64,000 nucleotides of DNA from an uncultured Acidobacteriota bacterium. GTDB lineage: Bacteria; Acidobacteriota; Thermoanaerobaculia; Multivoradales; UBA5704. The notes beneath the pieces were generated by a model that was given only the letters and a program-made list of their open reading frames with translations, ran no database searches and was not told the DNA's origin. The stretch spans positions 704,481-768,480 of the forward strand of contig CAVYRF010000001.1 in NCBI GenBank assembly GCA_963770895.1, written 5' to 3'. Position numbers and translations under genes: made by a program. Positions within the stretch are counted from its first letter, which is position 1. The number at the start of each line of letters is the position of its first letter. Of this stretch, positions 11,410-53,653 are shown piece after piece.

Positions 11410-11442
11410 GTGCCGCCGCCGCCGGTGTCTCGCCGCCGCCGT

Positions 11443-38468: not shown

Positions 38469-39227
38469 ATGAAGACCGTGTCCCGCCTGCTGTCCGTCGC
38501 CGCCTACGGCCTGGTGCGACCGTGGATGCGGCGCCGGGTGGGCCGGACGGTGCTCGAATCGATCGATGGCGTGCCGCTGGTGGTGTTGCCCCAGGTGCTC
38601 AACCCGCGCGTCTTCCGCACCGGCGCCTGGCTGGCGCAGGCGGTGCCGCCGGCTGCCGCGCCGGCGGCCACCCGCCGCGCTCTCGACATGGGCACCGGCT
38701 CGGGCATCGGCGCCATCTTCGCCGCCCGCCGCGGCTATCGCGTGACGGCGCTCGACATCAATCCCCACGCCGTCCGGTGCGCTCGCGTGAACGCCCTGCT
38801 CAACGGCCTGGACCAGCAGATCGACGTGCGGCAGAGCGACCTGTTCGACGCCGTCGCCGGCGAACGCTTCGACCTGGTGCTGTTCAATCCGCCATTTTTC
38901 CCCGGCACGCCGCGCGATCCGCTGGACGCGGCCTGGCGCAGCCACGACGTCATCGAGCGCTTCACCGCCGGCCTGCCCGCGGCGCTGGCGCCGGGAGGGT
39001 CGGCCCTGCTGCTGCTGTCCAGCGCCGGCGGCTCCGACAGCAAGCTCCTGGCCCACGTCCCCGCCCAGCTGCGCGTCGCGCCGGTCTTCCGCCGCGGCTT
39101 TGCCGGCGAAACGATCACGCTCTTTGCCGCCACCTGGGTCCCCGCCGCCAGCGCCAGCGCGGCCCAGGCCGGCGCCGCCCGGCCGCTGGCGGCGCCCGCG
39201 CTGTCCTCCGTGGAGGTGATGCGATGA
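38469..39227 (+). CDS. HemK/PrmC-like (NPPF motif) SAM-dependent methyltransferase
   Basis: ATG 38469. Motif I is LDMGTGSGIGAIFAA and motif IV is LVLFNPPFFPG. Its stop overlaps the next start (ATGA at 39224). Confidence 0.75.
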   Translation: MKTVSRLLSVAAYGLVRPWMRRRVGRTVLESIDGVPLVVLPQVLNPRVFRTGAWLAQAVPPAAAPAATRRALDMGTGSGIGAIFAARRGYRVTALDINPHAVRCARVNALLNGLDQQIDVRQSDLFDAVAGERFDLVLFNPPFFPGTPRDPLDAAWRSHDVIERFTAGLPAALAPGGSALLLLSSAGGSDSKLLAHVPAQLRVAPVFRRGFAGETITLFAATWVPAASASAAQAGAARPLAAPALSSVEVMR

Positions 39228-40816
39228 GCGCCAGCGTTGCCTCGGCAGGCGTGTCGGGCGCGGCGGCGGGCCGCCAGCGGGTGCTGCTGGTCAATCCGCG
39301 CATGTGCTCGCGCCGCTCGATGCGCCTGCCGCTGTCGCTGCTGTCGCTGGGTTCGGTCCTGGAAGGGCGCTACGACTACCAGCTGATCGACGGCAATGTC
39401 GATCCCGACGCCATCGGCACCGCGCTCGCCGCGCTGGCGCAAGGCGACCATGCAATGGTGGGGGTGAGCGTCATGCCGGGGCCGCAGGTGGGGCCGGCGA
39501 TCGCGCTGTCCACCGCGGTGCGCGCGCACTTCCCGCAGGTGCCGATCGCCTGGGGCGGGTACTTCCCGACCCTCTACCCGGATTCGGCGATCAACGCTTC
39601 GTACGTCGACTACGTGGTGCGCGGCCAGGGCGAAGAAACCCTGCTGGAGCTGCTGGCGCGGCTGCCCGACGCCGGGCCGCCGGCGCCGCCATCCGACTCG
39701 GCTGCCGACGCCGGCGCCCTGGCCGGCCTGGCGGGCCTGACCTTCAAGCACGACGCCGAAGTGCGGCACAACGCCGACCGCCACTTCAAGCCGCCGGACG
39801 ACCTGCCGCCGCTGCCCTACCAGCGCCTGGCCGACGTCACGCCCTACCTGCGCCCGACGTTCATGGGGGCGCGCACCGGCGTGCACCAGGCGGCCCTGGG
39901 CTGCCGCTATCGCTGCAGCTTCTGCGGCGTCGTCACGATGTTCAACGGCGTCACCCGCCTGCAGGGAGCGTCGCGCCTGGCGCAGGCGGTGACGACGCTG
40001 CGCGACAAGTACGGCGCCGACTCGATGCAGTACTACGACAACAATTTCTTCGACCGCGAAGAGAGCAGCGTGCCGCTGCTCGAAGAGCTCGCCCGCCTGC
40101 AATCGCCCTGGTGGTGCTATGCGCGCGCCGACACCATGGCGGGCTTTTCGACCCGCACCTGGGAGCTCATCCGCCAGAGCCGCATGCGCATGGCCTACAT
40201 CGGCGCCGAAGCGGGGAGCGACGCGGCGCTGCGCCAGATGAAAAAGGGGTCGCGCGTCGAAGACACGTTGGAGGTCGCGCGCCTGTGCCGCGCCTACGGC
40301 GTGGTGCCCGAGCTGTCGTTCGTGCTCGGCGGCCCCGACGATCCCGAAGGCGAGGTCGAGCACACCCTGAGCTTCATCAAGCGCATCAAGCAGATCCACC
40401 CCACCTGCGAAGTCGTGCTGTACTTCTACAGCCCGACGCCGCGGCGGGAAGCCGCGTCAGAGGCGACGCGGGCCAGCGGCCTGCGCCTGCCGGTGATGGA
40501 CAACTACGGCCCGGACGGCCCGCCGCTGCCGACGACGCCGCTCGAATGGACCGAGCGCAAGTGGATCGACTACGTGTGCCACCAGGACGCGCCCTGGCTG
40601 TCGCCGCGCCTGCGCCGCCGCGTGCGCGACTTCGCGACCGTGCTCGGCTGCCGTTTCCCGACCGTGCAGGACGCCAAGACCCCGGACTGGGGCAAGGCGA
40701 TCCTGCGCAACCTGTCCCGCTGGCGCTACAGCAGCGGCCTCTACGGCAGCCCCTGGGAGCTGGAGCTGGCCCGGCGCCTGGTGCCCTTGCGCCAGCCGCA
40801 GCGCGAAAGCCTGTGA
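39224..40816 (+). CDS. class B (cobalamin-binding-domain type) radical SAM enzyme, copy 1
   Basis: 530 aa. An N-terminal alpha/beta domain (VLLVNP...PLSLLSLGS...) is followed by GCRYRCSFC (CxxxCxxC). It is a paralogue of the 46896..48320 gene, sharing N-terminal and C-terminal motifs. Confidence 0.88.
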   Translation: MSASVASAGVSGAAAGRQRVLLVNPRMCSRRSMRLPLSLLSLGSVLEGRYDYQLIDGNVDPDAIGTALAALAQGDHAMVGVSVMPGPQVGPAIALSTAVRAHFPQVPIAWGGYFPTLYPDSAINASYVDYVVRGQGEETLLELLARLPDAGPPAPPSDSAADAGALAGLAGLTFKHDAEVRHNADRHFKPPDDLPPLPYQRLADVTPYLRPTFMGARTGVHQAALGCRYRCSFCGVVTMFNGVTRLQGASRLAQAVTTLRDKYGADSMQYYDNNFFDREESSVPLLEELARLQSPWWCYARADTMAGFSTRTWELIRQSRMRMAYIGAEAGSDAALRQMKKGSRVEDTLEVARLCRAYGVVPELSFVLGGPDDPEGEVEHTLSFIKRIKQIHPTCEVVLYFYSPTPRREAASEATRASGLRLPVMDNYGPDGPPLPTTPLEWTERKWIDYVCHQDAPWLSPRLRRRVRDFATVLGCRFPTVQDAKTPDWGKAILRNLSRWRYSSGLYGSPWELELARRLVPLRQPQRESL

Positions 40817-42537
40817 CGGACACCCAGCCCGACAGGCTGCCGGCAGCGAAGCTGCCGCTGCGGCACGGCGCCTATGCGTGGCAGACGCGCTGGCGCCCCG
40901 GCGAGCTCGCCACCGCCCGCTTCATGCCCATGGGCCTCCACCTGGAGCTGGTCACCAACAGCCCGCCCCTCCTGGCTGCCGCCCGCCAGTGCTTCGGCGG
41001 CTACGGCGAGCCGGCGCCAGACCGCCCCGTCGATCTCACCCTGAGGCTCTACCAGCACTCCGTCGACGCGCCGGCGCCAGGCGCTGGCGTCGCTACGACC
41101 GCCGCTACGTCCGGCCACCTCGCCACGGCAACGGCCGCCGCCGCCAACCCGGCCGGCACCGCCGGCCTCCCCGACCTGGCCAACACCGCCAACCCCGCCG
41201 ACCAGGGGTTCAACGGGGGCAGCGTCGCGGCGATCCACCCAGTGAGGGCGGCTGCCCTCCCGGAGGCCGGGCCGCCCGGCGCCGCCACGTCCGGCAGCTG
41301 TGTCGCCGCAACCGCCGCCGGCGCCACCCCCGGCTCCGTCGCTGCAACCGCCATCCACGCCTCGACGACCGGCAACGCCGCTGCTGCAACCGCCATCGGC
41401 GCCGCCATGTCTGGCAGCTCTAGCGCAGCAACCGCTGCCGACGCTACGACCGGCAACTCCGCTGCTGCAGCCGCCATCGGCGCCGCCATGTCTGGCAGCT
41501 CTAGCGCAGCAACCGCTGCCGACGCTACGACCGGCAACTCCGCTGCTGCAGCCGCCATCGGCGCCGCCATGTCTGGCAGCTCCGTCGCCGCAACCGCTGC
41601 CGACGCTACGACCGGCAGCTCCAGTGCCGCAACCGCTGCCGACGCTACGACCGGCAGCTCTAGTGCAGCAACCGCTGGCGACGCCACGACCGGCAGCTCC
41701 GTCGCCGCCACCTCACCTGTCGCCGCGATGGCTGGTGCCGCCGCCGGCGGCCGGGACGTGCATTTCTTTGACGGCGGCGCCGCCGGCGCGCCGCTGTCCG
41801 CGCCGATCCTGCGCTGCGAGGGTCCGTATCTCTACCAGGCCAGCGGGTCTGACACGGTGATGGTGGCCGACCGCGGCGCCGGGGTCACCTTCGGCTACCT
41901 GGCCGCAGCGACCGTGGCCGATGCAGCGCACCTCACCTGGCACTACCTGTGGCCGGCGGTTTCCTATCACCTGGAATGCCGCGGTTTTGCCGGAGTGCAC
42001 GCCGCCGCCATCGCGCGGCGAGGCCGCGGGCTGCTGCTGCGCGGCCGCAGCGGCCAGGGCAAGACGACGCTCACCTATGCGGCCACCCGTCGCGGCTGGC
42101 AGGCCGTCAGCGAAGACATCGTATGGGTGGACGCCCGCGGCGCCACCTGGTGGGGCTCGCCCTGGACCTTCCACCTGCTGCCGGACGCCCGCCAGCTCTT
42201 TTCCGAGTTGAGCGGGCGCGGCGTCGCCCTGCAGCCCAACGGCGAAGTCAAAGTGGTGGTCGACATGGAATCCCTCTGGCCCGGCAGCACCCTGCCCAAG
42301 GCCGCGGCCGGCCCGGTGGTCATCCTGGAGCGCCGCCATGGCGGCACCAGCAGCCTGGTCACCCTCGACCCGGCCACAGCGCACCACGAATGGCTGGACG
42401 GCTGCGCCCGCCACGAGCGCCAGGCCCCCGGCTACGACCAGACGGTGGCGGACCTGCTCAGCAGAGGTTGCCACCGCCTCCACCTGGGAGACGACCTGGA
42501 CGGCGCCCTGGACCTGTTGGAGCCGCTCCTGCCATGA
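40813..42537 (+). CDS. HPr-kinase-related P-loop kinase with long internal low-complexity repeat region
   Basis: GTG 40813 overlaps the upstream stop (GTGA). The C-terminal domain is GFAGVHAAAIARRGRGLLLRGRSGQGKTTLTYAATRRGWQAVSEDIVWV, which matches the HprK C-terminal-like P-loop pattern. An Ala/Thr/Ser-rich stretch of about 190 aa separates the N- and C-terminal domains. Confidence 0.7.
   Translation: MTDTQPDRLPAAKLPLRHGAYAWQTRWRPGELATARFMPMGLHLELVTNSPPLLAAARQCFGGYGEPAPDRPVDLTLRLYQHSVDAPAPGAGVATTAATSGHLATATAAAANPAGTAGLPDLANTANPADQGFNGGSVAAIHPVRAAALPEAGPPGAATSGSCVAATAAGATPGSVAATAIHASTTGNAAAATAIGAAMSGSSSAATAADATTGNSAAAAAIGAAMSGSSSAATAADATTGNSAAAAAIGAAMSGSSVAATAADATTGSSSAATAADATTGSSSAATAGDATTGSSVAATSPVAAMAGAAAGGRDVHFFDGGAAGAPLSAPILRCEGPYLYQASGSDTVMVADRGAGVTFGYLAAATVADAAHLTWHYLWPAVSYHLECRGFAGVHAAAIARRGRGLLLRGRSGQGKTTLTYAATRRGWQAVSEDIVWVDARGATWWGSPWTFHLLPDARQLFSELSGRGVALQPNGEVKVVVDMESLWPGSTLPKAAAGPVVILERRHGGTSSLVTLDPATAHHEWLDGCARHERQAPGYDQTVADLLSRGCHRLHLGDDLDGALDLLEPLLP
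41380..41703 (+). repeat. in-frame tandem repeats (81 bp x about 2.6, then 36 bp x about 3) inside the kinase gene
   Basis: Units start at 41380, 41461 and 41542 (GCTGCTGCARCCGCCATCGGCGCCGCCATGTCTGGCAGCTC...). They encode AAATAIGAAMSGSSSAATAADATTGNS, followed by AATAADATTGSS repeats. Confidence 0.85.
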
Positions 42538-43721
42538 CGCTCGAAGCAATCGCGGACCAGGAGGCTACACCGCCTGCCGCCGCCGCCGCTGCCGGCGGGT
42601 CGCCTTCCGCCGCCGTCGCCGGTGGCGAGCCGCCACCCGGCGCTGCAGGAGACGCCGGGCGTCTGGCGTGGATGTGCGAGCGGCTGGCCGTTTGGGTGGT
42701 CGCCCCGCCGCCGCAGCCGCCGCCGGCGTGGCCGGCCGCGGCGTGGGAGGACTTTCGTGCCGCCACGCAGGTCCACGGCGTCGGCCCGCTGCTGGGGCGG
42801 CGCCTGGGCGACCGCCAGCCATGGTCGCAGGCGGCAGCCTGGCTTGGCGCCGAGCATGCCGCCAACCGCTTGCGCGTCGAGCGTCTGCACCAGGACTTGC
42901 GCGCGATCCTGGCGCGCTTTGCCGCCGCGGACGTGCCGCTCATGCCGCTCAAGGGCGCGGTGCTGGGGCCGCTCTATTATTCCGACCCCGCGGAGCGGCC
43001 AATGGCCGACCTGGACCTGCTGGTGCGCGCCGAAACGCTGGCGCAGAGCGCCCAGCTGCTGGTCGACATCGGCTATGAGGTGGTCTTTGAAGGCCGCAAA
43101 CACGTCAAGCTGGCGCCGCGCGGCGGCCGTCGCCGCCCGGTCAGCGACGCCGGCGGCGCCAGCGACGGCGACGTTGGCGCCGACGCCGGTGGTAGCCCCG
43201 GCCCCGGCCCCGGCGACCACGAGGCGGCCGGCGAGCACCCCGACAACCCGCGCTGGGTCGAGCTGCATCCGGCCTGCGGCGAATGGCTGGGGGACGAGCG
43301 CATCGATCTGACCGGCCCGATCTGGGCCGGCGCCCGCCGGCAGCCGCTGCTGGGCGAGCCGGCCTGGCTGCCCGACCCGGCGACCCATTGGCTCTACCTG
43401 TTGGTGCATGCCACCCACCACATCCTGATCAATCGCTTCCGTCTCATCCAGCTGCTCGACCTGCTGCTGCTTTGCCCGACGGACCTGTTGGGCGCCGCCC
43501 TCCAGGTCGAGCCGCCCGCCGCCGCGGCCGCCATGGCGCGCGCCCTGTACCCGCCTCTCGCGCTCCTCCAACGGTACTTCCCGGCGGGCGCCACCGCCGC
43601 CGCGACGGCCCTGCGCCAGGACTTGCGCGCGCGGCTGGCGCCCGGCTACGCGGCCTGGGCCGACGGCCTGGACCTGTTCCAGGCTTGCTATCTCGACGCC
43701 GCGCCGTGGAGGGCGCCATGA
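42534..43721 (+). CDS. uncharacterised nucleotidyltransferase family protein (PF14907-like)
   Basis: ATG 42534 overlaps the upstream stop (ATGA). VPLMPLKGAVLGPLYYSDPAERPMADLDLLVR and LYLLVHATHH resemble the NTP_transf_5 family signature as I remember it. Confidence 0.7.
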   Translation: MTLEAIADQEATPPAAAAAAGGSPSAAVAGGEPPPGAAGDAGRLAWMCERLAVWVVAPPPQPPPAWPAAAWEDFRAATQVHGVGPLLGRRLGDRQPWSQAAAWLGAEHAANRLRVERLHQDLRAILARFAAADVPLMPLKGAVLGPLYYSDPAERPMADLDLLVRAETLAQSAQLLVDIGYEVVFEGRKHVKLAPRGGRRRPVSDAGGASDGDVGADAGGSPGPGPGDHEAAGEHPDNPRWVELHPACGEWLGDERIDLTGPIWAGARRQPLLGEPAWLPDPATHWLYLLVHATHHILINRFRLIQLLDLLLLCPTDLLGAALQVEPPAAAAAMARALYPPLALLQRYFPAGATAAATALRQDLRARLAPGYAAWADGLDLFQACYLDAAPWRAP

Positions 43722-45148
43722 GCGAGCCTGGCGCCGTCAGCGAGCCGGGCACCGTCGGCGAGCAGGGTGCCGTCAGCGAGCCGGGCGCCGCCAGCGAGCC
43801 GGGCACCGTCAGCGAGCAGGGCGCCGTCAGCGGGCCGGGCGCGGTCAGAGCGCGGGGCGCCGTCAGTGGGCCGCGCGGCATGAGCGGTCAAGGCGCCATG
43901 AGCGAGCGCCCGGTGGTGGTGGTGGTGGGCGACGCCGTGGCGCCCACCGGCTTCGCGCGCGTGCTGCACAGCATTCTGGGGCGGCTCGCCGACCGTTACG
44001 AGTTCCATCACCTGGGGGTCAACTACGGCGGCCAGCCGCACGAGCACGCCTGGCAGATCTATCCCGCGGACGGCGGCGGCGACCTGCACGGCGTGCGGCG
44101 CGTGCGCGACCTGGTGGAAAAGGTGCGGCCCCGCCTCGTCTTCCTGCTCAACGACCCCTGGCTGATGGGCGGCTACCTCGACGCCTTGGGCGATTGCCGC
44201 GCCGGCATCAAGGTGATCGCCTACGCGCCGGTCGACGCCGGCCCGCTGGAGGCGGAGCTGGTGGCGCCGCTCACCGGCCTGGATCACCTGGTGCTCTATA
44301 CCCGCTACGGCCTGCAGGAAATGGAGGCGTCGGCGGCGCAGCTGCGCCGCCTGCGCCCCGACGCGGCCGCCTTCCCGGCGCTGTCGGTCGTGCCGCACGG
44401 CGTCGATTCGGACCTCTTCCGCCCGCTCGCCGGCCCGCCCACGGCGGCGGCGCCCGGCGACTTTGCCGCCTCCCGCGCCGCGGCGCGCCGCCAGCTGTTC
44501 GTCGACCCGGCGCTGCACGACGCCTGGATCGTCTTGAACGCCAACCGCAACCAGCCGCGCAAGCGCATCGACGCGACGATCAAGGGCTTCGCGCTCTTTG
44601 CGCGCGACAAGCCGCCCAACGTCCGCCTCTACCTGCACATGGGGATGGTCGATTGCGGCTGGAACGTGGTCGCCCTGGCGCGCCGTCACGGCATCGAAGA
44701 CCGGCTCATCCTGACCGCCGAGGAGCACTTCCTGCCGGCGGTCGCCGACGATCTGCTCAACCAGATCTACAACGCCTGCGACGTGGGCATCAACACCTCC
44801 CTGGGCGAGGGCTGGGGCCTGGTCAACCTGGAGCACGCCGCCACCGGCGCCGCCCAGGTGGTGCCCCGCCACAGCGCCTGCGCCGAGATCTGGGACGGCG
44901 CCGCCGAGCTCGTCGAGCCCGTCGCCAGCCTCACCATGGAAGGCCTGCTGACCGAAGGCCGCCTGGTCGGCCCCGAAGGGGTCGCCCGCGCCCTCGATCG
45001 CCTGTACACCGATCCCTCCCACCTGCGCCGGCTGTCCGCCGCCGCCTACCAGGTCGCCACCCGCCCCGAATACCGCTGGGACGACGTCGCCCGCCGCTGG
45101 GACGATCTCTTCCAGCAGATGCTGGCGGCCACCCCCACTGCCGTCTGA
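43718..45148 (+). CDS. GT1/GT4-family glycosyltransferase with repeat-encoded N-terminal extension
   Basis: ATG 43718 overlaps the upstream stop (ATGA); alternative in-frame ATGs are at 43880 and 43898. The catalytic part starts at ERPVVVVVGDAV, and the GT1 core includes NTSLGEGWGLVNLEHAATGAAQVV. Confidence 0.85.
   Translation: MSEPGAVSEPGTVGEQGAVSEPGAASEPGTVSEQGAVSGPGAVRARGAVSGPRGMSGQGAMSERPVVVVVGDAVAPTGFARVLHSILGRLADRYEFHHLGVNYGGQPHEHAWQIYPADGGGDLHGVRRVRDLVEKVRPRLVFLLNDPWLMGGYLDALGDCRAGIKVIAYAPVDAGPLEAELVAPLTGLDHLVLYTRYGLQEMEASAAQLRRLRPDAAAFPALSVVPHGVDSDLFRPLAGPPTAAAPGDFAASRAAARRQLFVDPALHDAWIVLNANRNQPRKRIDATIKGFALFARDKPPNVRLYLHMGMVDCGWNVVALARRHGIEDRLILTAEEHFLPAVADDLLNQIYNACDVGINTSLGEGWGLVNLEHAATGAAQVVPRHSACAEIWDGAAELVEPVASLTMEGLLTEGRLVGPEGVARALDRLYTDPSHLRRLSAAAYQVATRPEYRWDDVARRWDDLFQQMLAATPTAV
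43721..43900 (+). repeat. 18-bp in-frame tandem repeat x about 10 at the 5' end of the GT1 gene
   Basis: Units AGCGAGCCGGGCGCCGTC (SEPGAV and variants) run from 43721. The context GCGCCATGAGCGAGC occurs at both ends, at 43714-43728 and 43894-43908. Confidence 0.85.
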
Positions 45149-45283
45149 GAAAATCGCCGTTGATCTGACCCGCTACCACCGCCCCAGACCACTAGACGTG
45201 CGATCGGGGGGCGTGGTATCTTCTAAAACAAGCAGACCAATGTCGTCCTTCGATCCTGTTTGGATGGGGGAGAGGAGGTAAGC

Positions 45284-45589: not shown

Positions 45590-45621
45590 CGCGTTCCGAA
45601 CGGTTGCCAGCGCGGCGCGGC

Positions 45622-46656: not shown

Positions 46657-46680
46657 CCACCTGCAACACGCTCCGCTCAC

Positions 46681-46861
46681 CGCTCGCCTTCACGGCTCGC
46701 GGTTCGCCACCTGCCTCTTGCGGTTCGCCGCTCGCCCTTCACGGCCCGCGGTTCGCCACCCGCCTCTTGCGGTTCGCCGCTCGCCTTCACGGCTCGCGGT
46801 TCGCCACCCGCCGGTTGCGGTTCGCCGTTGCCGCGGCTCGCGGTTCGCCACCCGCCGGCGG
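46681..46861. repeat. 48/49-bp tandem repeat x about 3.7 in the convergent intergenic spacer
   Basis: Units run 46681-46728, 46729-46777 and 46778-46825, with a partial fourth unit to 46861. The word GCGGTTCGCC occurs 7 times. It lies between the stops at 46656 (+) and 46896 (-). Confidence 0.85.
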
Positions 46862-46895
46862 CCTTCGACTGGCGGCCTGAGAGGGCGCCGGCGGA

Positions 46896-48320
46896 TCAGG
46901 ACAGGCGTTGTGCCGGGCGCAGGAAGTTGGCGACCTGCTTTTCGATCGGGGCGGCGTAAAAGTCGCGGTCGCAGCGCCAGCGGGCCAGCGCGCGCAGCGG
47001 CCGGCTCCAGGGTCGGCCGGAATCCCAGGCCAGCTGCTGGAAGAATTTGAAGCGCTCGATCAGCCGGTACTTTTCGGGCGACACCCACGGACCGATCGAG
47101 CCCACGAAGTCAAATTCGCTCCATTCGTCCAGCGTGCAGGGGAGGGTGAAGCCGGCGGCCACCGCGTTCTGGGTGATCGAGGTGCCGGGATAGGGTTTGA
47201 AATAGAAAATCGGCGTCTGGAAGTCGGGGCTCATGGCGCGCAGCCGCTTGACCACCTGCAGGGTGGCGCGCACGTTGTCCTCGGTCTCTTCCGGGAAGCC
47301 GACGATGAAGGGGAAGTTGACCGCCACGCCGAACTTGCGACAGCGCTCGGCGACAAAAAAGACCTGCTCCAGCTTGATGTCTTTTTTGATGCGATCCATC
47401 ATTTCCTGCGAGCCCGATTCGACGCCGACCAGCAGGCGGCGCAGCCCCGAGCGCTTGCACTTGGCGAAGACCTCTTCGCTCATGCGCTGGCCCTGGTCGG
47501 CGCGCATGGTGGCGGCCCAGGTGATGGGGAGCTTGCGGCGGATGAGCTCTTCGGCGACCGCTTCGACGCGCTGGGCGTAGGTGAAAAAGGTTTCGTCCTG
47601 GAAGTTCACGTCGTCGTAGCGCGAGCGGTGCCACAGCGCTTCGAGCTCTTCGCCCATGCGCTCGGGCGACAGGCCGGTCCACTTGCGCTGGTAGACGAAC
47701 GGATCGGCGCAAAAGGCGCAGCGGAAAGCGCACCCCTGCGACGAGATGTAATCCAGCTGGCGCTTGCCCTTGAGGCGATAGTACGGTTCGATGTCGATCA
47801 GGCCGTAGTTGTGGACCGCCAGGGTGTTGACGTCGGCCAGCGGGCGGGCCGTGTTCACCTGCGCGGCGCCGTCCTCGCGGTAGGTGCAACCCTGGCAGCC
47901 GGTCAGTGGCCGCCCTTCAGCCAGGCGCTCGACGATCTCGGCAAAGGTGATTTCCCCCTGGCCTTGCACGGTCACGTCGACGCTCGGTTCCGCCAGGCAT
48001 TCGCGGCCGAACATCGACGGGTGCCAGCCGCCCCAGACGACCGGCAGGTCGGCGCGGCTGGCCTTGGCGGCGCGGCTGGCCGCAACCGCGTCGGCGATCG
48101 GCGCCCCGGTGAGCACCGTGACGCCCAGGCAGAGCGCGCCTTCCAGCTCCGCCACCAGGGCGCGGTGTGCCGCTTCGGGGTTTTTGGCCAACCGGGCGTC
48201 CACGACCACCACCTGGTAGCGCTCGGGATCGAGGTGCGATCCGATGGTGAGCAGCGCCAGCGGCATGGTGTAAAAGACCGCGGTCGGGTTGTACAGCACG
48301 ATTTTGTGGCGGCGACTCAT
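46896..48320 (-). CDS. class B radical SAM enzyme, copy 2 (paralogue of 39224..40816)
   Basis: 474 aa from ATG 48320, overlapping the upstream stop (ATGA). Signature lines are IVLYNP...PLALLTIGS and GCAFRCAFC. Confidence 0.9.
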   Translation of the reverse strand: MSRRHKIVLYNPTAVFYTMPLALLTIGSHLDPERYQVVVVDARLAKNPEAAHRALVAELEGALCLGVTVLTGAPIADAVAASRAAKASRADLPVVWGGWHPSMFGRECLAEPSVDVTVQGQGEITFAEIVERLAEGRPLTGCQGCTYREDGAAQVNTARPLADVNTLAVHNYGLIDIEPYYRLKGKRQLDYISSQGCAFRCAFCADPFVYQRKWTGLSPERMGEELEALWHRSRYDDVNFQDETFFTYAQRVEAVAEELIRRKLPITWAATMRADQGQRMSEEVFAKCKRSGLRRLLVGVESGSQEMMDRIKKDIKLEQVFFVAERCRKFGVAVNFPFIVGFPEETEDNVRATLQVVKRLRAMSPDFQTPIFYFKPYPGTSITQNAVAAGFTLPCTLDEWSEFDFVGSIGPWVSPEKYRLIERFKFFQQLAWDSGRPWSRPLRALARWRCDRDFYAAPIEKQVANFLRPAQRLS

Positions 48321-49399
48321 AAGGGCTCCGGGGTCAATGCCAGCGTGCAGACGCATTTGCGACAGATCGCATCGCGGTCGGTGTCCAGGCCGCGGCGCCA
48401 GGCGAGCGCCTGCGGCGAATTGACGATCGCGTCCAGGCTTGCCGCCTGCCGCAGGTTGCCGAGCGGCGGCTGGAAGAAGCACGGCCGCACCGTGCCGTCG
48501 GCTTCGATCACCGTCGACACCCACGGCGCGTTGCAGCGATGCGGCGGAAAATCGCCGTGGCCGCACAGTGCGGCGTAGTAGTCGTAGAGCCGCGCCCGCA
48601 GCTTCGCCGCGCCCTCGACGATGAAGCCGGATGCGAAGTCGGCCGCGTGCTCGCGTTCCAGGGCGTCCAGCTCGCCGGCCAGCCGCGGCAGCTCCTCTTC
48701 GAGCAGCGCCACCTGGCCGGCGCGCGCCGCTTCCCAGGGCTGCGGCCGGTTGAAGGCGTCGCTGCTGACGTCGGCGGCCAGCAGGCTCAACCAGTTCAGG
48801 CCGATCGCGCGGGCCGCCGTGACGGTGCCGCGCAGGTGGGCGAAGTTGGCCCGCTGGACGGTGCAGCGCCCGCCGATCGTCAGCTGAGGCGCGGCTTGGC
48901 GCACCGCCGCCACCCCGTCGGCCAGCTTGGCGAAAGCGCGCGGCAGGTTGCGGATGTGATCGTGCACGGGCTGCGGCCCGTCCAGGCTGACGATCACTTC
49001 GGAGCAGTAGGCGGCGACCTGGGTCGCGTCGCGCCGCAGCAGCAGACCGGTGGACAGCAGGGTGATCGCGATGCCGGCGCGCCGCAGGTGCTCGCACATC
49101 TCCCACAGGTTGCGGTGCAGCAGCGCTTCGCCGCCCGACAGCGCGACCTGGCGCACCCCCATGCGCTGCCATTCGGCAACCCACTGTGCCACCTCGGCCG
49201 CGCCCAGCTCCTGCTTGCCCGGATCGCGCCAGATGTCGCACATCAGGCAGCGGCAGTTGCAGCGGCTGTGCGGGAACAGGATGACGATCGGCAGCCGCTC
49301 GACCGGTTGGGGCCGCGGCAACCCGTCGGCCGCCCCGCCGCTCCACGCGTTGGCCGGCAGCTCGGCGGCCGGCAGCACCGGAAGCACGGTCGAGCTCAC
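48317..49399 (-). CDS. radical SAM enzyme with Cys-rich SPASM/twitch-like C-terminal domain
   Basis: 360 aa from GTG 49399, overlapping the upstream stop (GTGA). It has RCNCRCLMCDIW (CxxxCxxC). The C-terminus has CNAPW...CFF...ICRKCVC. Confidence 0.85.
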   Translation of the reverse strand: MSSTVLPVLPAAELPANAWSGGAADGLPRPQPVERLPIVILFPHSRCNCRCLMCDIWRDPGKQELGAAEVAQWVAEWQRMGVRQVALSGGEALLHRNLWEMCEHLRRAGIAITLLSTGLLLRRDATQVAAYCSEVIVSLDGPQPVHDHIRNLPRAFAKLADGVAAVRQAAPQLTIGGRCTVQRANFAHLRGTVTAARAIGLNWLSLLAADVSSDAFNRPQPWEAARAGQVALLEEELPRLAGELDALEREHAADFASGFIVEGAAKLRARLYDYYAALCGHGDFPPHRCNAPWVSTVIEADGTVRPCFFQPPLGNLRQAASLDAIVNSPQALAWRRGLDTDRDAICRKCVCTLALTPEPL

Positions 49400-50385
49400 C
49401 GCCGCTCCAACTCCAGCAGGTAATGGTCGGCCAGCCAGGGCAGCGGCGGCCAGGTTTCGGCACGCCGCTCCCAGCGCCCGAGCAGACGCAGCAGGCGCGG
49501 GTGGCGCGCCGCCCAGCCTTCGGCGTAGGTGGGCGGCAGCAGCGCGCCGACCGCCGCGCGCCGGCGCAGGCGGAAGGCGGGACCGAACAGGCGCCGCAGC
49601 GCGCCGACCGACGGATAGCGGATGGTCAGGCCGCGCCAGCGCGTGCCGCCCGGCCGCAGCCGGCGAAAGGCGCGCCCCGGCTGCGCGTGGCCCAGGTACC
49701 AGGCCCACTCCCACGGCACCAGCGGGCCCATCACGCAAACGACCGCCATGGCGCCCGGCCGCAGGTTTGCCGCCAGCCAGCCCGCCAGCTGCCGCAGGTC
49801 GGCTGGCGCCACGCAGTTGAGGCCGCCGAAGTTGGACAGCACCCCGTCGAACGGCCGCGGCGCCGCCGGTGTGGCGCCGGCAGCAGGTGCGGCAGCGGGT
49901 ACAGGCGCGGTGGCGAGTACAGACGCGACCGCGGGCATAGGCGCAGCGGCGGGTACAGACGCGGGCGCGGGTGCCGGGTCCGCCGGCGGTGATTGCTGGG
50001 GGTGCCAGGGTTGCCGGGGCTGCCGGGTCAGCTGTTCGATGGTCTGGTGGCGCAGATCGACCCGATCGCCCAGGCCGGCGCTCGCGATCTTGTCGCCGGC
50101 GCGTTCCAGCATGCCGGCGGCGGCGTCGATGGCGGTGACGCGCACGCCGCGGCGAGCCAGGTACAGGGCGTCTTCGCCGGTGCCGCAGTTGAGCTCCAGC
50201 ACGTGGCTGCCGGGGGCGAAGCAGGCGTCCAGCCGCCGCCAGACCGCCTGGCGCATCTGCGTGCCGATGGCGCTGCCGGTGAAGCTGGCGTCGTAGGACG
50301 CGGCCATGCGGTCGAACGCGGTGGCACCCGTGGCGTCGCCATCGCGGCGCGCCGGCAGCACGGGGAGGACGGCCGGTTCGGTCAT
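49396..50385 (-). CDS. class I SAM-dependent methyltransferase (paralogue of 16980..17810)
   Basis: 329 aa from ATG 50385. Motif I is VLELNCGTGEDALYLA. There is a Pro/Ala-rich insertion at about 49850-50000, and the gene ends LELERR. Confidence 0.8.
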   Translation of the reverse strand: MTEPAVLPVLPARRDGDATGATAFDRMAASYDASFTGSAIGTQMRQAVWRRLDACFAPGSHVLELNCGTGEDALYLARRGVRVTAIDAAAGMLERAGDKIASAGLGDRVDLRHQTIEQLTRQPRQPWHPQQSPPADPAPAPASVPAAAPMPAVASVLATAPVPAAAPAAGATPAAPRPFDGVLSNFGGLNCVAPADLRQLAGWLAANLRPGAMAVVCVMGPLVPWEWAWYLGHAQPGRAFRRLRPGGTRWRGLTIRYPSVGALRRLFGPAFRLRRRAAVGALLPPTYAEGWAARHPRLLRLLGRWERRAETWPPLPWLADHYLLELERR

Positions 50386-50387
50386 CG

Positions 50388-51785
50388 TCACGGCGCCGCC
50401 GGCGACTCCTCGGGCCAGGAGAGCAGCGCCTGGTGCGCCGCTTCCGCCATCTGCAGCTTTTCGGCGGCGTCCGCCGGGTTGTCGGACTGCAGGCGGGCGG
50501 CGGCGACGCTGTTGCGCAGCCACCGGTCGGCCTGTTCGTAGTAGGCGCGCGAGCGCTGGCCGCGCAGCCGGTAGTCGCGGTCGGTGGCGGTATCCCAGCT
50601 CTTGTCGAGCTGCACGCGGTCGGCCACCTGGCGGAAGTAGGCGGTGTTCTTGATCGGGTAGGCGACGGTGGTGAAGAAGATGTTGGGGTTGGCCTTTTTG
50701 ACGTGCTCGACGGTGGCTTCGATGTCGGCCAGCGTTTCGCCCTGGTAGCCCCACATCAGGAACATGCCGACTTCGATGCCGTGGCGCTGGGCGGCGTGGG
50801 TCGCCCACTGCACCTGCTCGGCGGTGACGCCCCGATCCATGGCGTCCAGGATGCGCTGGCTGCCGCTTTCAGAGCCGATCCAGATGCGGTAGCAGCCCAT
50901 TTCGGCGAGCGTCGCGATCACTTCGTCCTTGAGCAGCCGATCGGCGCGCGAAATGGTTTCGAAAGGGCGCACCAAGCCGCGCTTCTTGAGCAGGCCGGCG
51001 AACTCGAAGAGCCAGCGGTGGTGGATGGTGAACACGTCGTCGGCGTACCACAGCTGTTCGGGCTGGTAGGCTTCGACGATGTGCGCCACTTCGTCGGCGC
51101 AGTCGAGCGCGCTGCGCCGGCGATGGGTGTAGCCGAACACGGCGTGCGAGCACCATTTGCAGCGATACGGGCAGCCGCGCGCGGTGATCAGGTTGACGCT
51201 GCCCATGCCGTGGTGGGTGTGCCAAACGTCGACGTAGCGGGCGATGTCGATCTGCTCGCGATCGGGCCAGGGGAGGCTGTCCAGGTCGGCGATCTGTTCG
51301 CGGTCCGGATTGGTGACGACCTCCCCTTCTTCGTCGCGGAAGACCGTGCCGTGCAGGCCGTGCAGACGGTGCGGACCGCGCAGGGCGAGCGCCGGCAGCA
51401 GTTCCGCGAGCGTCGCTTCGCCTTCGCCCACCACCACGACGTCGGCGCCGTGGGCCAGGTATTCGGCCGGGTAGTTGGCCGATTCGGGGCCGCCGAGCAC
51501 CACCGTCCAGCCGTGCTGCCGCGCGGCGGCGATGATGGCGAGGATCGACGCGCGGGTCATCAGGTTGGTGTAGATCCCCACCACGCCGCCGGGAGTGGCG
51601 GCAAGGCGCTGGCGCAGCGCGGCGCGCTCGGCGAACGTGGAATCGAAGATCTCGACGCTGAAACCGGCGCGACGCAGATACGAAGAGATGTAGAGCAGCC
51701 CCAGCGTCGGGTAGGGCTTCATGATCTGCAGCTCTTTGGGATCTTCGTGCAGGAAGTAGCCGTGGGTCAGCAGGATGTCGGCCAT
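50388..51785 (-). CDS. class B radical SAM enzyme, copy 3
   Basis: 465-aa ORF. Signature lines are MADILLTHGYFLHEDPKELQIMKPYPTLGLLYISSYL and GCPYRCKWC. It is a paralogue of the upstream gene. Confidence 0.9.
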   Translation of the reverse strand: MADILLTHGYFLHEDPKELQIMKPYPTLGLLYISSYLRRAGFSVEIFDSTFAERAALRQRLAATPGGVVGIYTNLMTRASILAIIAAARQHGWTVVLGGPESANYPAEYLAHGADVVVVGEGEATLAELLPALALRGPHRLHGLHGTVFRDEEGEVVTNPDREQIADLDSLPWPDREQIDIARYVDVWHTHHGMGSVNLITARGCPYRCKWCSHAVFGYTHRRRSALDCADEVAHIVEAYQPEQLWYADDVFTIHHRWLFEFAGLLKKRGLVRPFETISRADRLLKDEVIATLAEMGCYRIWIGSESGSQRILDAMDRGVTAEQVQWATHAAQRHGIEVGMFLMWGYQGETLADIEATVEHVKKANPNIFFTTVAYPIKNTAYFRQVADRVQLDKSWDTATDRDYRLRGQRSRAYYEQADRWLRNSVAAARLQSDNPADAAEKLQMAEAAHQALLSWPEESPAAP

Positions 51786-51786
51786 A

Positions 51787-53367
51787 TCAGTTCCAGCTCT
51801 TGCTCAGGTCGGGCATCGCCGGCGTCGTGTAATCTTTTCGAATCGCCGTCGGCCGTTCGCTGCGGCTGCACGCTTCAAGCCGCCCCAGCTCCAGCCAGGC
51901 GCTGCACAGCTGATCCAGCTCCTGCCGGATCTCCGCATCGGACGCGCCGTCTACAGCCGCAGGCGCGCCGGCGGCGGCGTTTGCAGGCAGGGCGGGCGGG
52001 GCAGGGGCAGCGCCCCGGGACCTGTCGCGCAGGCGCTGGCGGACCAGCAGATCGCGGTGCAGCAGGCGATGCAGGTGGCGATAGAAAGGCGTCTGATAGG
52101 TGCCCTGAAACATCATCGCCAGGTCGTTGCTGTCCTGCCAATGATCCTGCCCGTTGAGCTGGGCCTTGACCATCTCATGGAAGCGCGTGCCGGGCAGCGG
52201 GTAGCTGACGCTGATGCCGATCTCGTCGGGCAGCGTGTCGCGCACCAGCTGCACCGTCTGCTCGATGTCTTCAAAGGTTTCACCGGCGTAGCCGAACTGC
52301 AGGAAATAGCAGGCGCGGATGCCGGCGTCGCGCAGACGCTCGCGCACCACCGGGATCTGGCGCGCGTCGGTGCCCTTGTCCATGGCGTCCAGGATCTTCT
52401 GGCTGCCGCTTTCGACCCCCAGCCAGACCTCGTGGCAGCCGGCCTTGGCCAGGCCGGCCACGGCTTTTTCCGTCATGAGGTCGATGCGCGACTGGATCTT
52501 GAACGGGATCGAGCCGTCGAGCGCCGTCACCCGGTCGGCAAATTCGGCGACCCAGCGCGGCTGCAGGCCGAAGATGTCGTCGGCAAACCAGATCAGGTCG
52601 GGCTTCAGGCTGCGCTTCAGCAGCGCCATCTCTTCGGCCACGCTGGCCGGCGAGCGCATGGCGTAGCGCTGCCCCCAGATCGGTTTTGCGCACCAGTTGC
52701 AGTGGAAGGGGCAGCCGCGGGTGCTCACCATGTTGAGGCTGAAGTAGCCGTGGGCGCCGCGCCAGGCATTGCGGTAGCGTTCCACGTCGAGCAGGTCCCA
52801 GGCCGGCAGCGGAAAGACGTCGGGGTGGCGCTCGACGGCGCGCGAGCAGGTGCGCTGCACCCCGTCCGGCGCCGCCGGATCGGGGATCGCGAGGCCGGCC
52901 ACTTCGTTCACGCACCGGCCGTTGGCGCGGCCGGCAAGGATGTCGACCAGCTCGCCCAGGGTGTGATCGGCTTCGCCGGCCAGCACGTATTGCACGCCCT
53001 CGCGGAAGTACACCTCGGGATGATCGGACGCGTCGGAGCCGGCGGCGATCACCGTGGCGCCGGCGGCGCGCGCGTGCCGGCTCATGTTGCAGCCGGCGCG
53101 GCGGCTGTGCGCCAGACACATCTTATTGAGAAAGTTGAATTGATCTTCGTAAAGGGCGACGATAGCCGGTTGCGTTTCGGCCAGGAGCCGTTCGAACTCC
53201 TCTTCGCCATCGGCCAGCATGGCGTCGAACAGCGCCACCGAATAGCCGCGCCGCCGCAGTTCGCTGGCCGCGTACAGCGTGCCGAGCGGCGCGTAGGGCG
53301 ACATCTTTTCGATCTGCTTCGGATCATTCTTCAGAAAGAACGAATGGGCGAGGAGGATGTCGGTCAT
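51787..53367 (-). CDS. class B radical SAM enzyme, copy 4
   Basis: 526-aa ORF. Signature lines are MTDILLAHSFFLKNDPKQIEKMSPYAPLGTLYAASEL and GCPFHCNWC. This is the first gene of the minus-strand operon, with a 1-nt gap to the next gene. Confidence 0.9.
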   Translation of the reverse strand: MTDILLAHSFFLKNDPKQIEKMSPYAPLGTLYAASELRRRGYSVALFDAMLADGEEEFERLLAETQPAIVALYEDQFNFLNKMCLAHSRRAGCNMSRHARAAGATVIAAGSDASDHPEVYFREGVQYVLAGEADHTLGELVDILAGRANGRCVNEVAGLAIPDPAAPDGVQRTCSRAVERHPDVFPLPAWDLLDVERYRNAWRGAHGYFSLNMVSTRGCPFHCNWCAKPIWGQRYAMRSPASVAEEMALLKRSLKPDLIWFADDIFGLQPRWVAEFADRVTALDGSIPFKIQSRIDLMTEKAVAGLAKAGCHEVWLGVESGSQKILDAMDKGTDARQIPVVRERLRDAGIRACYFLQFGYAGETFEDIEQTVQLVRDTLPDEIGISVSYPLPGTRFHEMVKAQLNGQDHWQDSNDLAMMFQGTYQTPFYRHLHRLLHRDLLVRQRLRDRSRGAAPAPPALPANAAAGAPAAVDGASDAEIRQELDQLCSAWLELGRLEACSRSERPTAIRKDYTTPAMPDLSKSWN

Positions 53368-53474
53368 TCGATCCCCTACTCAAGGCCGCTGGCGATGGCG
53401 AGCGGCGGCAATGCTCAACTTTCGATCGTTGGCGGCGCGCCCGAGCCGACGAACTGATCTCCTAAGACCTCGTG

Positions 53475-53503
53475 AGAATACTTCTATCCTGCACGGTCGT
53501 CAA
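53475..53503 (-). promoter_or_regulatory. putative sigma70-type promoter of the radical SAM operon
   Basis: On the minus strand: TTGACG (complement of 53498-53503), a 17-nt spacer, then TATTCT (complement of 53475-53480). It sits in the AT-richest part of the 286-nt upstream region, about 108 nt before ATG 53367. Pattern match only. Confidence 0.3.
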
Positions 53504-53535
53504 CGCCAAAGTCAATGTCGGCACCGCGCGCGCCA

Positions 53536-53601: not shown

Positions 53602-53653
53602 GCATGCCGCCTGGCGAGAGGTGCCGGAGAGACAGCGGGGAACCGGCCTTCCT

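Follow-up and report, generated by a model that had tools for sequence, protein, structure and literature searches.

The two convergent operons examined here, from an uncultured Acidobacteriota bacterium (contig CAVYRF010000001.1), combine five radical SAM genes with genes for methyltransferases, a putative kinase, a nucleotidyltransferase-fold protein, a glycosyltransferase and a small Ser/Gly-rich protein, and they raise the question of what substrate so many enzymes act upon. Analysis of the surrounding 64,000 nucleotides (the window) and of related loci suggests that their likeliest role is to modify, by uncharacterised chemistry, a glycan at the cell surface, joined in this lineage by a small dedicated Ser/Gly-loop protein.

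Layout and gene content of the locus

All 12 gene calls between 38469 and 53503 are reproduced by third-codon-position GC (GC3) frame analysis, which together with Pfam bears out the two facing operons of 12 genes described in a first-pass annotation. Pfam profile annotation also agrees with the gene content given there and with the view that many modification chemistries are co-encoded (Table 1). The overlaps that it listed are exact (ATGA, GTGA, ATGA and ATGA on the plus strand, GTGA and ATGA on the minus strand), as is the 239-nt spacer between the convergent operons, filled with 48-bp repeats whose core occurs four times against 0.02 expected by chance. A gap of 135 nt (56% GC) precedes the small-protein gene. 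The extent of the unit needs revision, because the minus operon runs on along the same strand to 61063, through genes for a secreted protein, an acetyltransferase, a deacetylase, a GT4, a Wzx-type flippase and a GT2, and the island thus spans ~23 kb (38.5–61.1 kb). The gene for the secreted protein adjoins rSAM_C on a second contig as well. An NRPS is also encoded nearby in the window.

Table 1. Features of the island and its convergent spacer, with window coordinates and supporting matches.
Feature	Coordinates	Strand	Evidence
MT1, HemK/MTS-type SAM methyltransferase	38469..39227	+	PF05175 59 bits; NPPF in LVLFNPPF
rSAM_A, class B (B12-binding) radical SAM, paralogue of rSAM_E	39224..40816	+	PF02310 and PF04055 above threshold; CRYRCSFC
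ScmC/HprK-like P-loop protein, putative kinase	40813..42537	+	weak PF07475, TIGR04355, TIGR04249 matches
PF14907 nucleotidyltransferase-fold protein	42534..43721	+	PF14907 107.9 bits (gathering score 31.2)
GT-B glycosyltransferase (GT1/GT4-like)	43718..45148	+	PF13692 and PF00534
101-aa small protein, predicted Ig-like beta-sandwich with disordered Ser/Gly-rich loop, candidate acceptor	45284..45589	+	
Sulfotransferase-fold protein with low-complexity insertion	45622..46656	+	
48-bp tandem repeat, 3.8 copies, in convergent spacer	46680..46856	no strand	TRF score 275, 90% matches
rSAM_E, class B radical SAM	46896..48320	-	PF04055 75 bits and PF02310; CAFRCAFC
SPASM-domain radical SAM	48317..49399	-	PF04055 52 bits and PF13186 41.6 bits (cut-off 21.5)
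MT2, class I SAM methyltransferase	49396..50385	-	PF13649 50 bits
rSAM_D, class B radical SAM	50388..51785	-	PF04055 and PF02310
rSAM_C, class B radical SAM, paralogue of rSAM_D	51787..53367	-	PF04055 and PF02310
420-aa protein, N-terminal hydrophobic segment, secreted	53654..54916	-	no family match
Hexapeptide acetyltransferase (CysE/EpsC-like)	54913..55422	-	PF00132; NF041874 EpsC 130 bits (cut-off 150)
Polysaccharide deacetylase	55950..56831	-	PF01522 96 bits
GT4 glycosyltransferase	56828..58363	-	PF13692, PF00534, PF13439
Wzx/MOP-type polysaccharide flippase	58537..60066	-	PF13440 99 bits; weak NF058658 match
GT2 glycosyltransferase	60173..61063	-	PF00535 and PF13641

By domains and motif rSAM_A, rSAM_C, rSAM_D and rSAM_E are class B radical SAM enzymes and are predicted to use cobalamin; all four exceed the PF02310 and PF04055 gathering scores and have a CxxxCxxC motif, at one of residues 227, 219, 205 and 197. 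They form the two paralogue pairs noted earlier, rSAM_A with rSAM_E (28% identity, E 1e-55) and rSAM_C with rSAM_D (34% identity, E 1e-81). No NCBIfam cut-off is reached for any curated radical SAM equivalog (among them HpnJ, HpnR, BchE, ApyD, PhpK, rSAM_ocin_1, ladderane-type, NirJ, ScmE, PqqE), with best scores of 57–127 bits against cut-offs of 250–750, and these scores fail to separate sugar, lipid and peptide substrates. rSAM_D matches the solved sugar diol-dehydratase AprD4, and the SPASM protein, which has 13 Cys residues and a radical SAM core with a C-terminal SPASM domain, has the sugar-nucleoside enzyme BlsE (1.2e-9) and SkfB as its nearest solved relatives. MT1 scores 86 bits against TIGR00537, slightly short of the cut-off, and is probably N-directed.

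The earlier description of the 40813 product as HprK-like is weakly supported, with PF07475 at 18.5 bits (cut-off 33.3) and the HprK-related kinase A/B families at 30.8 (TIGR04355) and 29.2 (TIGR04352), both with a cut-off of 200; with TIGR04249 included, the TIGR scores range from 21 to 31 against 125–200. Matches to PDB sequences are weak and are to HprK (E 0.007) and PEPCK only. Its homologues carry the tag PF27840 ScmC, and the Walker A motif GxSGxGKTTL is invariant across them. The window protein contains a 200-aa in-frame tandem-repeat insertion, seen in the DNA as an 81-bp repeat of 4.2 copies at 41365–41701. The match of the adjacent protein to PF14907 is full-length (profile positions 2–248 of 249), and we take the gene-N nucleotidyltransferase of lasso-peptide clusters to be a member of the same family.

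In the rest of the plus operon the small-protein gene always occurs in the order GT1, small protein, sulfotransferase-fold protein; the GT-B gene is invariably immediately upstream of the small gene, which is found only with these two neighbours. The GT-B protein has N-terminal GAVSEP repeats, encoded by an 18-bp repeat of 9.3 copies. The 101-aa protein, whose gene has the strongest ribosome-binding site of the locus, has no Pfam or NCBIfam match and no signal peptide, and ends in TTVQP. Its loop is predicted to be disordered and varies in length, with S21, S23, G24, G26, S49, G50, S54 and G55 invariant. The sulfotransferase-fold protein matches no sulfotransferase family (PF00685, PF13469 or others) in Pfam or NCBIfam, and a profile search of PDB sequences gave no match; it may be inactive, since Leu replaces the Gly of canonical 5'-PSB loops. 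Its distant homologues occupy amino-sugar, GT2 and epimerase contexts.

Recurrence and genomic neighbourhoods

A search seeded with rSAM_D, the best-conserved member of the cassette, identifies 404 or more relatives among metagenome contigs, of which 80 loci were kept for counts. rSAM_C lies upstream of rSAM_D in 70 of these and MT2 downstream in 73, with a SPASM gene in 45, ordered as in the window. The order rSAM_C-rSAM_D-MT2-SPASM, present in most of the 80 loci, is common in Acidobacteriota, where the cassette is abundant, Ca. Solibacter and Ca. Sulfotelmatobacter included. This widespread acidobacterial set usually lacks the kinase, GT1, small-protein and sulfotransferase-fold genes, although a PF14907 gene joins it in roughly half of the longer ones, those of Terriglobia-type radical SAM islands among them. 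The literature searched yielded no description of the cassette.

The plus-strand series MT1-rSAM_A-ScmC-like kinase-PF14907-GT-small protein-sulfotransferase-fold recurs in at least 10 independent contigs, and MT1 and rSAM_A are paired in other phyla too. When the ScmC-like protein is used as the seed, genes of the window are recovered, differently ordered, from Thermoanaerobaculia, Holophagales, Caldilineaceae, Ca. Entotheonella, Pirellulaceae and Gemmatimonadota, and in many loci the PF14907 gene comes after the ScmC-like gene, either directly or a few genes downstream. The locus is modular: the genes co-occur, but the composition is not fixed, and GT1-small protein-sulfotransferase-fold is a lineage-restricted sub-module. 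The small protein is missing from all 80 loci of the rSAM_D search, and the loci that the ScmC seed gave in other phyla showed no Ser/Gly-rich ORF. Since most loci with the radical SAM cassette or ScmC lack the small protein, a role as substrate common to all of them is excluded.

Genes for sugar-chain assembly are recurring neighbours. Beside the ScmC homologues are GT4 pairs, GT2, GT9, Wzx and a weak PMT-like (GT-C-type) match, and at the block edges of Terriglobia-type radical SAM islands, where 10-kb flanks bound the view, we find Wzx in 8, GT87 in 5 and GT4 in 3–4 of 41 loci.

A proposed glycoconjugate pathway

Because the operons recur jointly in numerous soil bacteria, beside sugar-chain assembly genes (GT4, GT2, GT87 and Wzx flippases), decoration of a cell-surface glycan is the most likely function, and we assign a probability of roughly 40% to a radical SAM-tailored glycoconjugate pathway in which the small protein serves as acceptor in this lineage. 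The first-pass annotation had left the 45284 product, a glycan and a lipid as candidate substrates; the neighbourhoods favour the glycan, with the small protein as a possible acceptor in this lineage. The island resembles Wzx-dependent exopolysaccharide and O-glycosylation loci in its strand-coherent block of GT2, GT4, MOP flippase, deacetylase and EpsC-like acetyltransferase genes, and the flippase plus glycosyltransferases (GT2, GT4, GT-B) that mark Wzx/Wzy-type loci are present. We know of no characterised polysaccharide locus with 4–6 class B radical SAMs, a SPASM protein, PF14907 and a ScmC-like kinase. Against this reading, Pfam recognised no priming phosphoglycosyltransferase or Wzy polymerase among the window genes (three short or partial ORFs aside), though such genes could lie elsewhere in the genome; glycan genes accompany only part of the Terriglobia-type loci, and the proposed acceptor lacks a signal peptide.

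In the scheme that we infer, from substrate and order of steps to all catalytic activities, a glycan would be built by the GT-B and GT2 enzymes and handled by the Wzx-type flippase, deacetylase and acetyltransferase. It could then be tailored by the four cobalamin-type radical SAMs, the SPASM enzyme and the two SAM methyltransferases, likely through C-methylation or other radical chemistry at unactivated carbons of the sugars, together with methylation at N or O; C-methylation of sugars by cobalamin radical SAMs has precedent in GenK and GenD1 (PMC5819394, PMC4340712). The second module, inserted in this lineage, may follow lasso-peptide chemistry, in which a homologue of the kinase phosphorylates a Ser of the peptide and a hexose is then attached to the phosphate by the gene-N nucleotidyltransferase (PMC8498205). 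By this analogy the ScmC/HprK-like protein would phosphorylate a hydroxyl and the PF14907 protein would couple the new phosphate to a sugar or nucleotide, after which GT1 could lengthen the chain and the sulfotransferase-fold protein could attach sulfate or bind it. The Ser/Gly loop of the Ig-like protein is the most likely acceptor, which would yield a small O-(phospho)glycosylated protein. The full version of this scheme is rather doubtful: a new glycoconjugate pathway, widespread in soil Acidobacteriota, in which 4–6 cobalamin radical SAMs and a SPASM enzyme put C-methyl or C-C modifications on a glycan that, in a Thermoanaerobaculia-type variant, is carried through phospho-serine on the loop of the Ig-like mini-protein. 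If true, that variant would be a bacterial 'proteophosphoglycan' made by lasso-type kinase and nucleotidyltransferase chemistry.

Alternative substrates

It seems unlikely that the locus encodes a new RiPP, with the 101-aa protein as a precursor C-methylated by the class B radical SAMs and cross-linked in its Ser/Gly-rich segment by the SPASM enzyme, and the kinase, nucleotidyltransferase, GT and sulfotransferase-fold proteins as peptide tailoring enzymes in the manner of decorated lasso peptides. The best ribosome-binding site does belong to a small ORF inside the cluster, whose middle varies between conserved flanks; some lasso clusters include genes for a kinase, a nucleotidyltransferase and a sulfotransferase (PMC8498205; PMC4289311); radical SAMs of RiPP pathways show weak likeness (ApyD 121 bits, rSAM_ocin_1 57–72 bits, SkfB); and a TonB-dependent receptor follows the plus-strand module in L042-L044. 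However, all RiPP family scores are far under cut-off, and the two ends of the small protein are predicted to form a single beta-sandwich, so that the variable part is an internal loop and not a C-terminal core. The small protein was considered as a leader-core peptide and rejected on its predicted single folded Ig-like domain with a Ser/Gly loop. Its distribution, given above, also argues against a precursor, as does the lack of an RRE/PqqD domain, leader peptidase, cyclase and ABC exporter. The reported absence of a lasso cyclase, PqqD/RRE and protease between 38469 and 53503 stands in Pfam and NCBIfam searches; the Wzx-type flippase lies just outside this interval.

The earlier view that the locus fits no known RiPP class is also upheld, and it bears no lasso, proteusin or SynChlorMet signature. 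Lasso tailoring systems (paeninodin kinase; pseudomycoidin PsmK/PsmN) likewise place an HprK-family P-loop protein beside a nucleotidyltransferase-fold protein with a sulfotransferase-type gene near, but the 12 proteins include no match to the Asn-synthetase-like cyclase (C), transglutaminase-like protease (B2) or PqqD-like RRE (B1), the sole small ORF is predicted to fold as a single domain, unlike a short leader-core precursor, and has no C-terminal Ser, and the distant kinase homologue sits among radical SAM and glycan genes. The parallel with lasso peptides drawn earlier is an analogy only, with the neighbourhoods pointing to a glycan as the common substrate. For proteusins, the small protein shows no NHLP/Nif11 leader in Pfam or NCBIfam, and the rSAM_ocin_1-type methyltransferase family TIGR03975 scores 55–72 bits against 282. 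SynChlorMet cassettes, themselves uncharacterised to our knowledge, also pair a ScmC-type protein with a radical SAM/SPASM enzyme and include a PqqD-like ScmD; here ScmC (20.7 against 125), ScmE (57.4 against 400) and ScmF (44 against 400) fall below cut-offs, no scanned protein matches the PqqD family, and the locus instead has GT genes and four radical SAMs of class B.

Tailoring of membrane lipids is quite unlikely. The class B and SPASM radical SAMs would add methyl groups, rings or bridges to alkyl chains, such as those of hopanoids or of acidobacterial membrane-spanning lipids of the iso-diabolic-acid or brGDGT type, and the GT, kinase and nucleotidyltransferase would make a glycosylated head group. 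The abundance of the cassette in Acidobacteriota suits this; the acidobacterial route to membrane-spanning lipids is reported as unresolved (PMC13159169), and archaeal tetraether modifiers are clustered enzymes of the same types, the B12-binding radical SAMs Grs and Gmm and the SPASM/Twitch enzyme Gms, with bacterial homologues reported in Acidobacteria and Planctomycetes (PMC11214058). HpnJ, HpnR and 'lipid biosynthesis B12-binding/radical SAM protein' are among the best NCBIfam matches, but score 4–7 fold under their cut-offs; no Tes, Mss, Ger, PlsA, ether-lipid, fatty-acid or hopanoid genes occur in the neighbourhoods examined, where flippase and GT genes are the recurring neighbours.

It is improbable that the product is not a cell-surface polymer but a small secreted compound derived from sugars, for instance a pseudo-oligosaccharide of the aminoglycoside or nucleoside kind. 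The enzyme palette does recall aminoglycoside and nucleoside pathways, with cobalamin radical SAM C-methylases such as GenK and GenD1 (PMC5819394) and SPASM/twitch enzymes such as BlsE alongside GTs, an N-methyltransferase, a kinase, a nucleotidyltransferase, a deacetylase and an acetyltransferase; the nearest solved relatives of the radical SAMs include AprD4 and BlsE, at low identity, and the NRPS and the TonB-dependent receptor of L042-L044 would fit. However, genes for a cyclitol or 2-deoxy-scyllo-inosose synthase, an aminotransferase or resistance were not seen, the flippase implies a lipid-linked glycan, and the very wide spread in soil Acidobacteriota suits a housekeeping envelope role better than an antibiotic.

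That two unrelated operons face each other by chance is highly improbable: the plus-strand module does occur without minus-strand genes (L004-L006, L042-L044), and the radical SAM cassette mostly without ScmC, GT1 and the small protein, but both operons share the same arrangement in L002 and L007, their genes interleave in L037, L008, L023, L063 and L069, MT1-rSAM_A converges with rSAM_C-rSAM_D-MT2 in L048, L054, L057 and L062, and a Gemmatimonadota locus (L035) reads rSAM_D-MT2-SPASM-rSAM_E-ScmC-GT4-GT4. The genes recur together across phyla, which contradicts the accidental juxtaposition that the first-pass annotation had named as a possible refutation.

Gene content and signals of the locus

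The locus comprises two convergent operons, one of which carries most of the radical SAM genes, in a window of ~73% GC. The first-pass annotation's gene calls are matched exactly by frame analysis of third-codon-position GC (GC3), and the four-base gene overlaps, the 135-nt gap (56% GC) preceding the small-protein gene and the 239-nt spacer where the operons meet were all found as described. The 48-bp repeat noted in this spacer is present in 3.8 copies with 90% matches, and its core is observed four times against 0.02 expected by chance. A CxxxCxxC motif is present in all five radical SAM proteins, and the four large ones do fall into two paralogue pairs, rSAM_A with rSAM_E (28% identity, E value 1e-55) and rSAM_C with rSAM_D (34%, 1e-81).

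Features of the window, with the basis of assignment
Feature	Position	Strand	Basis or detail
KaiC-like double-domain ATPase	4105-5892	-	
Second glycan-type gene group	5910-13359	-/+	
PEP-mutase/isocitrate-lyase-superfamily protein	19222-20043	-	PF13714, 257 bits
NRPS, 4114 aa	22104-34448	+	
MTS/HemK-type methyltransferase (MT1)	38469-39227	+	Pfam; NPPF motif in translation
rSAM_A, B12-binding and radical SAM domains	39224-40816	+	Pfam
ScmC-like P-loop protein	40813-42537	+	
PF14907 nucleotidyltransferase	42534-43721	+	Pfam
GT-B glycosyltransferase (GT1)	43718-45148	+	Pfam
Small protein	45284-45589	+	
Sulfotransferase-fold protein	45622-46656	+	Fold comparison only
Intergenic array	46680-46856		48 bp x3.8
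rSAM_E, B12-binding and radical SAM domains	46896-48320	-	Pfam
Radical SAM/SPASM protein	48317-49399	-	Pfam
Class I methyltransferase (MT2)	49396-50385	-	Pfam
rSAM_D, B12-binding and radical SAM domains	50388-51785	-	Pfam
rSAM_C, B12-binding and radical SAM domains	51787-53367	-	Pfam
Sigma-70-like site	53503-53475	-	TTGACG-17-TATTCT
Tandem repeat	53532-53602		33 bp x2.2
Intergenic array	55577-55769		21 bp x9.2

Pfam and NCBIfam scans of all the locus proteins place no radical SAM in any curated family. Judged from their domain matches, the four class B radical SAMs, the SPASM enzyme and the PF14907 protein are genuine superfamily members, none of which falls into a curated subfamily. The label 'HprK-like kinase' is weaker than first given, as the protein scores below every family threshold in both databases. 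Its Walker A motif is invariant, and its homologues carry the PF27840 'ScmC' tag. A profile search of the sulfotransferase-fold protein against PDB sequences gave no match. In P0144, a 561-aa protein from a Logan contig, a canonical sulfotransferase (PF13469/PF00685) is naturally fused at its C-terminal side to a copy of the sulfotransferase-fold protein (hhalign probability 100%). This suggests joint action of the two, one possibly being a catalytic subunit and the other a pseudo-enzyme or substrate-binding subunit.

Scans for sigma-70 promoters and terminators revealed nothing above chance apart from one promoter-like site upstream of rSAM_C. This site adjoins a 33-bp tandem repeat, and its position hints that the rSAM operon could be transcribed separately from the glycan genes upstream.

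Tandem repeats are concentrated in the island, the ~23-kb unit containing both operons and these glycan genes; 10 of the 12 TRF rows scoring ≥150 in the 64-kb window, or roughly five of six separate arrays, fall at 41283-57134. Two arrays are intergenic, and the coding repeats have unit lengths in multiples of three (81 bp x4.2 and 39 bp x10.8 in the ScmC-like gene, 18 bp x9.3 in GT1, 24/48 bp in GT4). As a consequence of these in-frame repeats the window proteins are much longer than their orthologues (ScmC-like, 574 vs 317-404 aa; sulfotransferase-fold, 344 vs 225-260 aa; GT1, 476 vs 404-420 aa). The repeats may reflect the behaviour of a length-variable surface locus, or a genome-wide trait.

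The small protein, glycan-type neighbours and proposed function

The small-protein gene has the strongest Shine-Dalgarno sequence of the locus, and its product lacks a signal peptide. Its 37 homologue clusters are 82-101 aa long (116 aa in L004, a homologous locus), with highly conserved N-termini (MAITIVNQSVG.I.YT.FGG) and C-termini (YTVVFGW..P.YTVSASGVV) enclosing a Ser/Gly-rich middle of variable length. The family is rare, as just 19 matches turned up when 1.84 billion representative proteins were searched exhaustively by profile, and the gene occurs solely between GT1 and the sulfotransferase-fold gene. HMM and composition searches of ScmC loci in other phyla identified no other Ser/Gly-rich small ORFs.

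Families recurring beside ScmC homologues include two GT4 families (15 and 9 loci), GT2, a Wzx flippase, and one with a weak, below-threshold match to PMT (GT-C-type). Upstream of the rSAM operon, minus-strand genes continue in the window as far as position 61063; their products are a 420-aa protein whose N-terminus has a hydrophobic segment, an EpsC/CysE-like acetyltransferase, a polysaccharide deacetylase, a GT4, a Wzx-type flippase and a GT2. Genes for distant homologues of the sulfotransferase-fold protein are flanked by amino-sugar catabolism genes on one side and by an epimerase/GT2 pair on the other. The nearest solved relative of the SPASM enzyme is BlsE, whose substrate is a sugar nucleoside, and rSAM_D matches AprD4, a sugar diol-dehydratase. 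In gentamicin biosynthesis, sugars are C-methylated by cobalamin radical SAMs (PMC5819394, PMC4340712).

We classify this as a Wzx-type glycoconjugate locus whose radical SAM/kinase/nucleotidyltransferase tailoring set is without precedent, and tentatively propose (probability about 0.4) that it makes a radical SAM- and methyltransferase-tailored glycan, with the Ser/Gly loop of the small protein as its likely acceptor. The glycosyltransferases would assemble the glycan, the flippase, deacetylase and acetyltransferase would handle it, and the radical SAM/methyltransferase set would tailor it. In the window's lineage the ScmC-like kinase and PF14907 protein may act by analogy with their lasso-peptide counterparts, where Ser is phosphorylated by a kinase and the phosphate then receives a hexose from a nucleotidyltransferase (PMC8498205). 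Further extension and decoration would fall to GT1 and the sulfotransferase-fold protein. That the locus represents a categorically new system, a radical-SAM-tailored phosphoglycan on a dedicated mini-protein, we regard as doubtful.

Class B radical SAM enzymes serve in the making of antibiotics, RiPPs, cofactors and lipids. A new RiPP pathway is unlikely, with no peptide-recognition, protease or cyclase genes in the neighbourhoods examined and, by Pfam and NCBIfam, none of the features that define lasso, SynChlorMet or proteusin systems. Tailoring of membrane lipids is less likely still, the same neighbourhoods containing no fatty-acid, ether-lipid or hopanoid genes; the enzymes for acidobacterial membrane-spanning lipids are still unresolved (PMC13159169, PMC8941075, PMC11214058), and a lipid substrate would bear on the enzymology of these palaeoclimate proxies. 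A sugar-derived small molecule, a reading in line with the sugar-acting relatives of the SPASM enzyme and rSAM_D, ranks slightly lower again, as a Wzx-type flippase implies a lipid-linked glycan.

We found no characterised example of a battery of class B radical SAMs within a Wzx-type glycan locus, nor any description of the cassette in the literature searched. If envelope glycans are tailored as proposed, this would represent new sugar chemistry and a new B12 role in soil bacteria that are abundant but poorly cultured. A concrete, testable substrate-enzyme set is offered by the ScmC-like/PF14907 pair together with the Ser/Gly-loop mini-protein, for two protein families on which there is almost no biochemistry.

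In three metagenome loci (L042 10999-13518, L043 10996-13649, L044 10990-13590) a TonB-dependent receptor and a DedA/VTT-domain membrane protein are encoded on the same strand directly 3' of the MT-rSAM-ScmC-PF14907-GT-small-sulfotransferase-fold module; some DedA proteins recycle undecaprenyl phosphate. A second glycan-type group, 25 kb upstream of the island, encodes a GT9 heptosyltransferase-like protein, two PhyH-family dioxygenases, a 393-aa protein without known identity and an FkbM-methyltransferase/GT4 fusion. Because the core module of L042 and L043 is preceded, at a distance of a few genes, by an FkbM methyltransferase and a GT4, the window's fusion may be a displaced piece of the same system.

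Recurrence and modularity

The ScmC-like protein has ~50 homologue clusters, and the order MT-rSAM_A-ScmC-PF14907-GT-small protein-sulfotransferase-fold is kept on Thermoanaerobaculia and related contigs; two of the homologous loci (L002 and L007) also have the entire minus operon in the same arrangement. A one-genome-per-species scan placed ScmC relatives in Thermoanaerobaculia, Holophagales, Caldilineaceae/Anaerolineales, Ca. Entotheonella, Pirellulaceae and Gemmatimonadota, and tblastn shows the window's genes around them in shuffled order. Examples are L035 (Gemmatimonadota; rSAM_C | rSAM_D-MT2-SPASM-rSAM_E-ScmC-GT4-GT4), L037 (ScmC, rSAM_C, rSAM_D, MT2, rSAM_A, MT1, SPASM, GT4) and L008 (Entotheonella; rSAM_E, SPASM, GT9, ScmC, PF14907, MT, GT2, GT4, MT2, rSAM_D). 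This reshuffled recurrence across phyla rules out accidental juxtaposition, leaving a chance facing of two operons highly improbable.

There are at least 404 rSAM_D relatives in metagenome contigs, mostly JGI Ga-series records. Exact look-ups lead to Ca. Sulfotelmatobacter, Ca. Solibacter, Ca. Angelobacter, Thermoanaerobaculia and Ca. Aquilonibacter, and show one 90%-identity cluster of 367 members. Among the 80 rSAM_D-seeded loci kept, the partners are MT2 (73), rSAM_C (70), rSAM_A-like (50), SPASM (45) and rSAM_E-like (38) genes in conserved order; ScmC is present in just three, and none of the 80 has GT1, the small-protein gene or the sulfotransferase-fold gene. The locus is therefore modular. 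Its abundant cassette is the rSAM/MT/SPASM set, joined by PF14907 in about half of the long loci; ScmC partners it occasionally, and the GT1-small protein-sulfotransferase-fold genes are an addition restricted by lineage. When 41 long loci were compared by ORF clustering and Pfam, the typical island had [GT87 or membrane protein], B12-rSAM, (Wzx flippase), PF14907, class I MT and rSAM_A-like on one side and rSAM_E-like, rSAM_C, rSAM_D, MT2 and SPASM on the other; 20 of the 41 carry PF14907, and some have GT4. In four Terriglobia-type islands (L100, L103, L115, L125) a BtuF-like periplasmic binding protein (PF01497; family k18) is encoded next to SPASM or one gene away, consistent with a cobalamin supply of their own for the numerous B12-binding radical SAMs.

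Distant ScmC homologues (~30% identity) in Terriglobia (L025-L029, L033-L034) lie directly upstream of a PF14907 gene. These loci were excluded as a different context, their other neighbours being cytochrome c-, cupredoxin-like- and sensor kinase-like translations (judged by eye). Since the pair is kept amid unrelated genes, ScmC-PF14907 behaves as a portable two-gene module.

The NRPS, with four condensation, three adenylation, four carrier and one thioesterase domains, ends 4 kb upstream of the locus and adjoins Usp, Nramp (MntH) and DtxR-family regulator genes. It looks like an insertion, as in L001, L002 and L005 no such gene separates the conserved SCO1/cytochrome-c/UbiE-MT genes from the cluster. 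Also upstream of the island are genes for a PEP-mutase/isocitrate-lyase-superfamily protein and a KaiC-like ATPase.
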